In this document: one piece after another, positions 5,108-6,905 of the stretch
Position numbering within the stretch: position 1 is the stretch's first letter
Layout of the letters: each line of letters starts with the position of its first letter
Assembly: GCA_028282005.1 (NCBI GenBank)
Contig: JANQIV010000107.1
Location: 1 to 24,000 of the forward strand
Source of the DNA: Melioribacteraceae bacterium
GTDB taxonomy: Bacteria > Bacteroidota > Ignavibacteria > Ignavibacteriales > Melioribacteraceae
Direction of reading: 5' to 3'
DNA: 24,000 bases
The notes under the pieces: generated by a model
What the model saw: only the letters and a program-made list of their open reading frames with translations
What the model was told of the DNA's origin: nothing
The model's database searches: none
Position numbers and translations under genes: made by a program

Positions 5108-5133
5108 ATGCTGCCATTTTATAATGACAGCAT
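5108..5133 (-). terminator. Rho-independent terminator of the Reb operon
   Basis: It lies 8 nt downstream of the stop at 5141. The minus-strand RNA is AUGCUGUCAUU-AUAA-AAUGGCAGCAU. That gives an 11 bp stem with one G.U pair and a 4 nt loop, followed by UUUUA. Confidence 0.6.
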
Positions 5134-5140
5134 AAATAAT

Positions 5141-5386
5141 TTATTCCGAATAGTTGGATTGTTTAGCGGTATTGTTAAGTGCGTCAGCAACTGCTTTTTC
5201 TGCATCCTGCATGGCTTTTTCGATTTGCTTCTGCATTGCAGCTAATTCATTTTGAATTTTAGCTTTGTCTTTTGCAGTTTCTTTTTTTGCAGTAGTTGCC
5301 TTAGTTTCTGATTTCTCTGCCTGTGTTTTAGAATCTGCTTCTTTTGCTACATTGCTTTTTGAGGCAGTTTTTTTGTTTTCTGCCAT
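5141..5386 (-). CDS. Small K/A/E/T-rich low-complexity protein with C-terminal coiled-coil; last gene of the Reb operon
   Basis: 81 aa, ATG start with AAAGGAG 8 nt upstream. It is 22 nt downstream of the preceding gene and is followed by the terminator. I recognise no family; coding status rests on the SD and operon position. Confidence 0.55.
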   Translation of the reverse strand: MAENKKTASKSNVAKEADSKTQAEKSETKATTAKKETAKDKAKIQNELAAMQKQIEKAMQDAEKAVADALNNTAKQSNYSE

Positions 5387-5408
5387 TGAATAAACTCCTT
5401 TGTTAATT

Positions 5409-5849
5409 TTACTTCGCTTTTGTATCTGCTTCAGTTTTTTTCTTAGTCTCTTTTGCTGATTCTTGCTTATTTGCCGGTGAGTTTTTCAAAATATCATGAT
5501 AAGTTTTGGTTAATTCATCCATGAAGCTCTTTAAACCATTAAATGATTCAAGTACGTTAGTGTTCTTTATTACTTCATTAATAATTTTCATAGCTTCTTC
5601 AGGCTTAGCTTCTAAAACTGCTTTAGCAGTAGCTACAGTAATTGCATTCTGCAAAATAAACATTTGCTGCTGCTGATTTACAACATTAAGCATTGCTAAG
5701 CCGGTTGCCTGCGCCATTATTTGATATGAAAACGCTGCAGCATCAGTACTTGAATTATTGTTTAACATTTCTTGAAGCGACGAGATTGAATCTTTTATCT
5801 GATCATTTAGAGTTGTTTTATCATTTACATTTTCTTGAGTAGTGCTCAT
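5409..5849 (-). CDS. Divergent RebB-like (R-body family) protein with N-terminal extension and long helical, lysine-rich C-terminal extension
   Basis: Residues about 14-80 (LNDQIKDSISSLQEML..AAAFSYQIMAQATGLAMLNVVNQQQQMFILQNAITVATAKAVL) align position by position with the neighbouring paralogue (VNDQITDSVTQSNVQVI..GQAIGGLYQVVSSVLALASQNSTANQQNSNTISSAVTTNCVKVL). Its ATG overlaps the upstream stop (TAATG). Confidence 0.6.
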   Translation of the reverse strand: MSTTQENVNDKTTLNDQIKDSISSLQEMLNNNSSTDAAAFSYQIMAQATGLAMLNVVNQQQQMFILQNAITVATAKAVLEAKPEEAMKIINEVIKNTNVLESFNGLKSFMDELTKTYHDILKNSPANKQESAKETKKKTEADTKAK

Positions 5850-6073
5850 TATTCACCTAGTATTTTTTGAACACATTTTGTTGTAACCGCTTCAGTAATT
5901 GTATTTAAATTTTGTTGATTTGAAACTGCATTTTGTGCTGCCAAACTTAAAGAAGCTGCTACAACTTCATACAGTGCTGCCAATGCTGTTGCAGGTGCAC
6001 TCGCTAACACTTCAACATTCGACTGAGTTACTGAATCCGTAATTTGACTGTTTACTGCTGTTGGGAATGCCAT
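5849..6073 (-). CDS. RebB-family ('killing trait') R-body structural protein homologue, paralogue 3
   Basis: 74 aa. MAFPTAVNSQITDSVTQSNVEVLASAP...LY.....NAVSNQQNLNTI..AVTT. The N-terminal VNSQITD(S/A)VTQ(S/T)NVKV motif and the A/S/Q/N-rich core with a Q-Q-N run are what I recall for Caedibacter RebA/B/D and annotated killing-trait proteins. SD AAAGGAGAA upstream. Confidence 0.8.
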   Translation of the reverse strand: MAFPTAVNSQITDSVTQSNVEVLASAPATALAALYEVVAASLSLAAQNAVSNQQNLNTITEAVTTKCVQKILGE

Positions 6074-6093
6074 GTTTTTTCTCCTTTAATAAA

Positions 6094-6339
6094 CTATTTT
6101 TTCACTGTCGATTCTTTTGAATCAATTAATACTTTTACACAATTTGTTGTAACTGCTGAGCTAATTGTGTTTGAATTCTGCTGATTTGCAGTTGAGTTTT
6201 GTGAAGCTAATGCCAATACACTTGAAACTACTTGATAAAGTCCGCCGATTGCTTGCCCTGGGGCACTTGCAATTACTTGTACGTTTGATTGCGTTACTGA
6301 ATCTGTAATTTGGTCATTTACTGCCGTTGGAAATGCCAT
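6094..6339 (-). CDS. RebB-family R-body structural protein homologue, paralogue 2
   Basis: 81 aa. MAFPTAVNDQITDSVTQSNVQVIASAPGQAIGGLYQ...NSTANQQNSNTI. SD AAAGGAGAA 7 nt upstream. 19 nt gap to paralogue 1. Confidence 0.8.
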   Translation of the reverse strand: MAFPTAVNDQITDSVTQSNVQVIASAPGQAIGGLYQVVSSVLALASQNSTANQQNSNTISSAVTTNCVKVLIDSKESTVKK

Positions 6340-6358
6340 TTAGTTCTCCTTTAATTTT

Positions 6359-6595
6359 TTACTTCTTTGAATCGCTGCCAAGTAATGAATTTACACTTAC
6401 TGTAGTTGCCGCACTAATAATGGAATTCATATTTTGTTGGTTTGCCGTAGCATTTTGTGCCGCATTGCCTAATGCTTGTGCCGTAGTCTGATACAAGTTT
6501 CCCATTGCTAATGATGGTGCATCTCCTAATACTTGTACATTGGATTGAGTTACTGAATCGGTAATTTGTCCGTTTACTGCTGTTGGTATTGCCAT
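6359..6595 (-). CDS. RebB-family R-body structural protein homologue, paralogue 1 (first gene of operon)
   Basis: 78 aa. MAIPTAVNGQITDSVTQSNVQVLGDAPSLAMGNLYQTTAQALGNAAQNATANQQNMNSI. Strong SD GAGAGGAG 6 nt upstream. Confidence 0.8.
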   Translation of the reverse strand: MAIPTAVNGQITDSVTQSNVQVLGDAPSLAMGNLYQTTAQALGNAAQNATANQQNMNSIISAATTVSVNSLLGSDSKK

Positions 6596-6905
6596 AATAG
6601 CTCCTCTCTTTTATGATAAGTAATAAAAACTAAATATATTGGAAATTTAGATTTCAGATTTTAGCTTTCTTTTAGGATAACTAGAAAAAAAATTTCAAAA
6701 GACTACTTATCTCAATTTATAAATTTATATTTAAAAGTCATAGATTTATTATTTAGATTATTTCTAATTACAAGATTATTAATAATTAATTAACTAAAAT
6801 GAATCTCACTTTTGCTTTGTTCTTTAGTAATTCATATTTTAACTTAAAAACAATTTCTCACGTGCTGTTGTCTAGATTGTTCGAAAAAAATTAGGGAGAT
6901 GAAAA
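6596..6905. promoter_or_regulatory. Very AT-rich divergent intergenic region, presumed to hold promoters for the Reb operon (minus) and the GH18-like gene (plus)
   Basis: 310 bp non-coding gap between divergent start codons, much more AT-rich than the flanking genes. I could not pick out a convincing -35/-10 or Bacteroidetes-type -33/-7 pair by eye, so only the region is called. Confidence 0.35.

Follow-up and report, generated by a model that had tools for sequence, protein, structure and literature searches.

We analysed a window of 24,000 nucleotides (nt) from a Melioribacteraceae bacterium (contig JANQIV010000107.1, positions 1 to 24,000) and found five closely packed open reading frames (ORFs) on its minus strand, which span 6595..5141, form one compact transcription unit and, with the terminator included, reach position 5108. 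Four of the five gene products are members of the RebB/'killing trait' family, namely three small subunits and one long secondary Reb. By analogy with characterised systems the locus would be an R-body (reb) operon of five genes on the chromosome of an Ignavibacteria bacterium, R-body function included, and we assign this reading a probability of about 0.72. R-bodies belong to the few protein machines known to answer a chemical cue with a mechanical extension of roughly 50-fold; their use as membrane-breaking actuators is under development. A first-pass annotation of the same DNA had proposed a Reb/R-body operon in a non-proteobacterial, Ignavibacteria-like host of the Fibrobacteres-Chlorobi-Bacteroidetes (FCB) group, and this was borne out, for the operon by the RebB-family matches given below and for the host by the cluster of the window's cytochrome c oxidase subunit I (COX1) and by the Melioribacteraceae relatives of the cassette. 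The following features were located (aa, amino acids):

6359..6595 (-), reb1: small RebB-family subunit of 78 aa, no Cys, GAGGAG Shine-Dalgarno site
6094..6339 (-), reb2: small RebB-family subunit of 81 aa, single Cys in TTNCV, AGGAG Shine-Dalgarno site, 19-nt spacer
5849..6073 (-), reb3: small RebB-family subunit of 74 aa, single Cys in TTKCV, best-conserved paralogue
5409..5849 (-), rebL: long 'secondary' Reb of 146 aa with a Reb domain at about residues 8-86, a two-helix C-terminal extension and a Lys-rich tail
5141..5386 (-), P5 (fifth gene): 81 aa, Lys/Ser/Thr-rich N-terminal half, conserved C-terminal helix …QxxAExAVxDA…
5108..5133 (-), intrinsic terminator closing the operon: 11-bp stem, 4-nt loop, T-run
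6596..6905 (-), upstream intergenic region: 310 bp, AT-rich, with conserved candidate regulatory blocks

Reb-family proteins and P5

The small reb genes are separated by spacers of 19 and 20 nt, and a GGAG-type Shine-Dalgarno site (AGGAG or GAGGAG) lies 5-8 nt ahead of the ATG in four of the five genes. The ATG of rebL overlaps the stop codon of reb3 (TAATG) and is preceded by AGGTGA. For the terminator hairpin (5133-5108) a minimum free energy of -13.8 kcal/mol was calculated (z = -4.76), and 0 of 200 shuffled sequences folded equally well. Shine-Dalgarno sites, 19-20-nt spacers, TAATG coupling, fifth gene, terminator and 310-bp AT-rich region had all been described in the first-pass annotation and were confirmed, as were the coordinates and sequences of the three minus-strand genes of 74-81 aa with their near-identical start, LYQ and NQQN. 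A recent survey takes at least three clustered reb homologues as a reb cluster (PMC13430693); by that definition the window operon is one, with four Reb-domain genes inside 1.2 kb.

Using the Pfam RebB/'Killing trait' model PF11747 (gathering threshold 24 bits, model length 68), Reb1 scored 97.4 bits (E 5e-28, model positions 1-67 of 68), Reb2 75.7 bits (E 3e-21) and Reb3 86.4 bits (E 1.4e-24), the latter two also with near full-length coverage; over the three proteins, coverage was model positions 1-63/67 of 68. The first-pass annotation had named this comparison as the test of its proposal, and all three small proteins passed it. A search of 5.8 billion proteins yielded 267 matches, with PF11747 present in all of the 120 best. 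Matches named by their source were labelled 'RebB family R body protein', 'Killing trait', hypothetical protein or, in one case, glycerol-3-phosphate dehydrogenase. Named Reb relatives came from Burkholderia, Bradyrhizobium, a Bacteroidota metagenome-assembled genome (MAG), a Cytophagales MAG, Desulfobacteraceae and Candidatus Angelobacter, and the small Rebs shared 63-71% identity with named RebB-family proteins over about 70 residues (90-100% of the query).

All three small proteins start with MA(I/F)PTAVN(G/D/S)QITDSVTQSNV(Q/E)V and carry LY(Q/E) and NQQN, while their pairwise identity is 59-64%. Primary Rebs are recognised by QITD with a proline on either side, a conserved Tyr in domain 2, NAV, QQ(Q) and very few charged or aromatic residues (PMC13430693). 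Of these diagnostic motifs P4...QITD...P27, LY(Q/E) and NQQN were present in Reb1-3, with NAV in Reb3 and NAT and NST in Reb1 and Reb2; each small Reb has 5-8 charged residues and 0-1 Phe/Trp. The K of the KxxxD/E motif is replaced by Q or E in the window Rebs and is also Q in the aligned Burkholderia/Bradyrhizobium proteins. An AlphaFold2 (AF2) model of Reb1, based on a 75-sequence alignment, gave one unbroken helix over residues 6-76 (pLDDT 89), in agreement with the all-alpha predictions published for the family (PMC3583457, PMC13430693). A PDB search with Reb1 found no match to a solved structure related to any Reb protein.

We were aware of the fact that A, S, T, Q and N make up 54-59% of these proteins, and that Ala/Ser/Gln/Asn-rich low-complexity sequence might produce a Reb similarity as a compositional artefact. 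The matches, however, are full-length and position-specific, 27 invariant columns are common to the small Rebs of the window and proteobacterial Rebs in the alignment, and identity amounts to 63-75% without gaps. With E-values down to 5e-28 the resemblance of Reb1-3 to the Reb family is not one of chance, and we regard the artefact explanation as refuted, its remaining probability being negligible.

The small Rebs of the window align to about residue 70 and then end, without the final stretch of about 10-15 residues (…LDTAxTGxATxxIL) with which the common 88-90-aa form closes. The average Reb homologue measures 95 aa (PMC3583457). The first-pass annotation had stressed the shortness of the subunits; this stands for the 74-81 aa observed, which result from the loss of about 10-15 C-terminal residues, but the short length is not unique, because 24 of the 120 best homologues (of 267) are likewise at most 83 aa long. 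A Cys was found in 21 of these 24, in most of them at TTxCV, where the aligned 88-90-aa Rebs have Gly. The single conserved Cys at TTxCV, as in Reb2 and Reb3, thus marks a short (<=83 aa) Reb subclass; Cys has been described as rare in Reb proteins (PMC13430693).

The product of the fourth gene, RebL, reached 27.7 bits against PF11747 (cut-off 24, model positions 1-60). Comparing the profile of the RebL family with the small-Reb alignment gave a probability of 98.5% (E 2.8e-15) over 79 columns. At the profile level RebL is a true, divergent Reb homologue, which brings the Reb-domain genes in the operon to four; the first-pass annotation, which had counted three Reb genes and taken the fourth for an unrelated coupled gene, is corrected on this point. 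RebL retains DQIKDS (family DQIxDS), the Tyr and NVVNQQQQ (family NxVNQQQQ), and lacks both prolines. Its AF2 model was all-helical (helices 14-31, 36-80, 83-96 and 99-122), with a pLDDT of 72 and a low pTM of 0.36. The two extension helices, 83-96 and 99-122, hold the conserved motif GLKxFMDxLxxTY and are followed by a Lys-rich tail predicted to be disordered. A filter-free search of 1.84 billion representative proteins with the RebL profile yielded 165 matches at E<=1e-3, 59 at E<=1e-10 and 6 at E<=1e-30, the weaker ones merging into ordinary Rebs. Judged by these counts the RebL family is small, and the position of its gene was unchanged in every related cassette.

For P5 no match to a Pfam, NCBIfam or PHROG family was obtained. 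The P5 family comprises 7 sequences including that of the window, and 6 of the 7, which are those whose contexts were examined, lie directly after rebL in such cassettes. A P5 homologue follows next after rebL in six related cassettes (L002, L003, L006, L007, L010 and L011), and a profile search of a large database added two members, one of them in such a cassette. We therefore treat P5, from its position and by analogy, as a candidate accessory or assembly factor. Two other identities were rejected for it: a hidden Reb, as hhalign was negative, and a protein like the 115-aa HP1.2-like product of Burkholderia, as BLASTP gave no alignment.

Host, related cassettes and selection

Clustered at 90% identity, the COX1 of the window groups with a protein named 'MAG: cytochrome c oxidase subunit I [Ignavibacteria bacterium]', and a neighbouring protein bears a type IX secretion system (T9SS) C-terminal sorting domain. 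From the COX1 cluster name and the nearest cassette relatives, which are Melioribacteraceae, the host is assigned to the Ignavibacteria. The lack of NCBI names for the window proteins suggests that the MAG is unannotated. Scanning the GTDB species representatives with the RebL profile identified three Ignavibacteria loci (two Melioribacteraceae, one Melioribacter sp.) and two Flavobacteriaceae loci (Polaribacter sp. Hel1_85 and Pseudotenacibaculum haliotis). Overall, the cassette was found in 5 Ignavibacteria loci and, in a reduced form, in 2 Flavobacteriaceae. In the Ignavibacteria loci the long Reb, of 125-147 aa, comes after three small ones; P5 measures 83-85 aa in L002, L003, L010 and L011, and no P5 ORF was found in L005. 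The flavobacterial loci have two small Rebs, a RebL of 119-120 aa and a charged P5 of 60-71 aa.

The closest relative, L010 (MAG GCA_905148095.1), is fully syntenic with the window over the GH18-like gene, the reb cassette, the FG-GAP/T9SS protein, PrmC and Dtd. Comparing the two, the proportions of nonsynonymous and synonymous differences (pN/pS) were 0.25/0.68 for reb1, 0.18/0.58 for reb2, 0.07/0.55 for reb3, 0.11/0.76 for rebL and 0.34/0.64 for P5. With pN far below pS for the reb genes and below it for P5, the pattern of substitutions indicates that all five genes are under purifying selection. Reb2 shared 74% identity with its positional orthologue in L010, and Reb3 89% with the third Reb of L010 and 91% with that of L003 (dN/dS about 0.07). 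Positional orthologues are hence closer than paralogues within one genome (89-91% for Reb3 versus 59-64%), so that the three paralogue lineages are old and have been retained separately, which argues for non-redundant roles.

Conservation extends into the upstream region, where alignment with L010 revealed the following elements:

6743-6712 (-), conserved block 1: CTATGAnnTTTAAATATAAATTTATAAATTGA
6725-6714 (-), perfect palindrome inside block 1: AATTTATAAATT
6669-6654 (-), conserved block 2: GAAAGCTAAA..ATCTGA
6638-6631 (-), conserved block 3: TAtaTTTA (TAnnTTTA), near the Bacteroidota -7 motif

The -7 element of Bacteroidota reads TAnnTTTG. These blocks are near-identical in the window and L010, although synonymous sites of the flanking genes differ by 55-77%, which is near saturation. 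We read them as a putative operator together with an FCB-type promoter. Neither a canonical sigma-70 promoter on the minus strand nor an Rfam match was found in 6596-6905. A Pfam scan of all flanking ORFs detected no sigma-70 or regulator domain next to the operon, the neighbours being the GH18-like protein and an FG-GAP T9SS cargo protein. Judged by ORFs alone, no RebC-like ORF of at least 20 aa lies upstream, except for two of 30-31 aa without gene support.

These data also speak to the idea that a reb cluster, once acquired horizontally, persists here as a relic, silent or decaying and no longer functional. Horizontal spread of reb genes is known (PMC13430693, PMC3583457), and no dedicated regulator was recognisable nearby. 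A relic is nevertheless very improbable: none of the five ORFs is disrupted, their Shine-Dalgarno sites are good, pN is below pS in every one of them against the syntenic L010, the upstream regulatory blocks are conserved, and the same chromosomal context has been inherited in the related MAG. Furthermore, the GC content of the operon (0.32-0.33) does not differ from that of its flanks. With this GC content, and with Rebs essentially absent from IMG/VR contigs, the cassette behaves as a resident chromosomal operon and not as a recent insertion.

A phage association of the cassette was considered and is not supported, as the 2.9 million contigs of IMG/VR gave one partial Reb-like match only. 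Reb-like proteins do exist in some phage genomes despite this single match: the phage family phrog_32040, of unknown function, matched Reb1 at E 3e-16 and RebL at 1e-4. In one Melioribacteraceae lineage, and absent from the window, a conserved protein of 382-383 aa without Pfam domain is encoded directly after P5 (L002 7295-8446, L011 6785-7933, L012 1180-2328); this protein may be an additional component, or a cargo, peculiar to that lineage. Its L002 version (383 aa) was rejected as HP1.1-like, since it showed no similarity to the 398-aa protein (about 400 aa) of Burkholderia.

Relation to known R-body systems and proposed function

Among the closest known systems is the R-body locus of Caedibacter taeniospiralis type 51 (rebA-rebD on pKAP298). 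Our comparison with it draws on published descriptions, and pKAP298 was not among the PLSDB matches. Both loci have several tandem RebB-family paralogues in one compact operon, with small, helical, nearly uncharged subunits. Each also has one or more short or divergent paralogues and a small protein outside the Reb family that possibly serves assembly, as RebC and RebD do. In contrast to the Caedibacter operon, the window locus is chromosomal and belongs to an Ignavibacteria host, it encodes a 146-aa long Reb and a Lys-rich 81-aa protein and no recognisable RebC homologue, and its subunits measure 74-81 aa as against presumably about 105-115 aa for RebA/RebB, the length given in the first-pass annotation. 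That annotation had also pointed to a missing RebC. No candidate ORF was indeed seen, but this does not distinguish the locus: RebC homologues are known from Caedibacter only (PMC3583457), so that their absence here is uninformative and not disqualifying. In Caedibacter, RebC and RebD act in the assembly pathway, RebC not being incorporated and RebD being a minor component, and mutants without RebA or RebB still form rolls that have lost pH-dependent extension (10.64898/2026.05.21.725848).

Also related are the clusters with the 'Group 1 synteny' of Raymann et al. 2013, represented by Burkholderia plantarii (L008/L009). Its small Rebs are 65-68% identical to those of the window, and in both loci tandem small Rebs are followed by a distant Reb of about twice the length (HP1.3-like, 203 aa in Burkholderia) and by small proteins of unknown function. 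The Burkholderia locus differs in having six Rebs of 89-96 aa, a 69-aa Reb and proteins of 203, 115 and about 400 aa. Group 1 partners are HP1.1 (about 360 aa), HP1.2 (about 110-120 aa), HP1.3 (a distant Reb of about 170 aa) and HP1.4 (a distant Reb of 60-80 aa). RebL is analogous to HP1.3 in position and length (PMC3583457), while its match to the 203-aa protein was confined to the Reb domain (32% over 71 aa). In the window operon this HP1.3-like element was the only Group 1 partner found, and an HP1.1-like protein of about 360-400 aa was absent. Group 2 or Pseudomonas-type clusters are accompanied by HP2.1/HP2.2 (about 205-220 aa), a dedicated sigma factor and a transcription regulator (PMC3583457, PMC8322103); no gene for a sigma factor or transcription factor adjoins the window operon. 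Pseudomonas aeruginosa PA14 (rebP1, rebP2, rebD, rapA, fecI2, rcgA) resembles the window in combining Reb-family structural subunits with a non-stoichiometric associated protein. It is the only free-living system in which R-bodies seen by electron microscopy were linked to host damage (PMC8322103).

Bacteroidota clusters (Kordia algicida, Chryseobacterium and other Flavobacteriales) share the FCB-group host with the window. The cassette of Polaribacter sp. Hel1_85 and Pseudotenacibaculum haliotis is a reduced form of the one described here; in contrast to the Flavobacteriaceae cassettes, those of the window and its Melioribacteraceae relatives encode a third small paralogue, and their RebL is longer (145-147 aa) and has a Lys-rich tail. 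In the first survey of Reb proteins all were proteobacterial, with Kordia as sole exception (PMC3583457). The 2026 survey covers 671 taxa from Pseudomonadota, Bacteroidota, with Chryseobacterium among the richest genera, Cyanobacteria, Acidobacteriota and single taxa of other phyla (PMC13430693). The earlier statement that Reb loci have been described mostly in Proteobacteria needs correction on this point, and the proposal of an uncharacterised variant of the machine is weakened by these known non-proteobacterial clusters. Ignavibacteriota are absent from the phylum list in the main text of the 2026 survey (PMC13430693), probably because these MAGs have no protein annotation, and our literature search found no paper linking R-bodies to Ignavibacteria. 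The locus is a known protein family in a new host lineage with a lineage-typical cassette, and not a new kind of system.

Taking the characterised R-bodies of Caedibacter type 51 and Pseudomonas aeruginosa PA14 as a guide, we infer the following mechanism. Reb1-3, which are almost uncharged, rich in Ala/Ser/Thr/Gln/Asn and predicted to be single long helices, would co-polymerise in the cytoplasm to a coiled ribbon resistant to sodium dodecyl sulphate. RebL, translationally coupled to the most conserved subunit, and the Lys-rich P5 would serve as minor components or assembly factors, a role parallel to those of RebC/RebD in Caedibacter and RapA in Pseudomonas, where RapA is an R-body-associated minor component of PA14 (PMC8322103). 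The most likely trigger would be acidification after ingestion by a phagotrophic protist, upon which the coil would telescope into a long tube, rupturing the bacterium and the membrane of the surrounding vacuole. Acid-driven extension of R-bodies into a membrane-rupturing tube has been described (PMC8322103; 10.1101/029587). The system would then act as a sacrificial anti-grazer or killing device, expressed in a subpopulation.

Several points weigh against this proposal. Polymerisation, acid trigger and the accessory roles of RebL and P5 are drawn by analogy, the Ignavibacteria and Flavobacteriaceae cassettes are known from sequence alone, and for the majority of bacteria with reb genes R-body production has yet to be demonstrated (PMC3583457, PMC8322103). 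The C-terminal 10-15 residues that the subunits lack relative to the common 88-90-aa form may matter for rolling or extension. RebC, HP1.1/HP1.2, HP2.1/2.2, FecI2/RcgA and RapA were undetected at the window (RapA and RebC without sequence comparison), P5 is unlike the Burkholderia 115-aa protein, RebL matches the 203-aa protein across the Reb domain only, and no toxin candidate was evident beside the operon.

Some of these points would also fit Reb homologues whose cytoplasmic polymer or inclusion cannot extend and pierce membranes. It could be a static roll or filament used for structure, storage or another purpose, actuation having been altered or lost through the truncation and the different accessories. 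The missing C-terminal 10-15 residues, accessory genes unlike those of every studied system and the rolls still formed by Caedibacter without RebA or RebB, by which rolling is no guarantee of actuation (10.64898/2026.05.21.725848), are in line with such a polymer. On the other hand, residues 1-70, with all diagnostic motifs, are 63-71% identical to proteobacterial Rebs, the C-terminal 'domain 4' is heterogeneous across functional Rebs (PMC13430693), and three distinct paralogue lineages have been kept, as expected of a multi-component actuator. We consider a static polymer unlikely and favour an R-body operon with extension retained.

For this R-body operon a more specific form can be tentatively proposed, towards which we lean less than away from it: the Ignavibacteria/Flavobacteriaceae cassette might be a distinct, self-sufficient R-body type, built from two to three truncated, mostly Cys-bearing Rebs, RebL and the lineage-restricted P5, the latter two replacing factors of the RebC/RebD/RapA type, with a ribbon that differs in dimensions, cross-linking (through the single Cys) or trigger chemistry. 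If so, the cassette would provide the first R-body of the phylum Ignavibacteriota, along with a minimal new set of parts for the engineering of protein actuators. Ignavibacteriota are ranked as their own phylum by NCBI, and the range of the Reb family is extended to them by the present locus. A compact five-gene FCB-type cassette with two conserved, previously undescribed accessory genes is defined at the same time. Should it be expressible, it would offer a short and simple subunit set for dissecting the part of the variable C-terminus and of minor components in assembly and actuation. The finding also suggests that free-living Ignavibacteria of sediments or bioreactors may carry an anti-protist device. 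Current understanding is not overturned, and standard Pfam- or PGAP-based annotation would label the genes correctly.

Neighbouring genes

Further genes of the window were recorded as follows:

6906-7649 (+), divergent to the operon: GH18-like protein of 247 aa with an intact DxxDxDxE motif (DGVDFDDE, residues 93-100)
8229-8801 (+): hydrophobic ORF of 190 aa, overlapping the next by 47 nt
8755-9588 (+): ORF of 277 aa with a HATPase_c domain only
9696-12674 (+): protein of 992 aa with an N-terminal hydrophobic leader, six CxxCH haem-binding motifs and weak cytochrome P460 and MtrC-like matches
16493-23998 (-): complete haem-copper oxidase cluster comprising cytochrome c, SCO1/SenC, COX1, COX3, COX2, a UbiA-type haem O synthase and a further cytochrome c protein

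The GH18-like protein reached 26.2 bits against a Pfam threshold of 29.6 bits, showed no N-terminal signal sequence by eye and had no NCBIfam, PHROG or PDB sequence match. Its gene adjoins the reb operon in the window and in L010 only, and not in the other cassettes. In Burkholderia plantarii (L008/L009 2642-3340) a divergent gene for a glycosidase-like protein of 232 aa (PF08924, Rv2525c_GlyHyd-like) also lies upstream of the reb operon. The GH18-like gene was rejected as an R-body partner, given its limited adjacency and the absence of similarity to this PF08924 gene; the presence of glycosidase-like genes near both reb loci is probably a coincidence.

The overlapping ORFs at 8229-8801 and 8755-9588 look like a sensor kinase split in two. 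As the same split was present in L001 and L010, it is probably not a sequencing error. The 992-aa multihaem protein is encoded in a stretch of higher GC content (0.37-0.42 versus about 0.33 elsewhere). The haem-copper oxidase cluster represents an ordinary respiratory context and is consistent with the assignment of the host to the Ignavibacteria.

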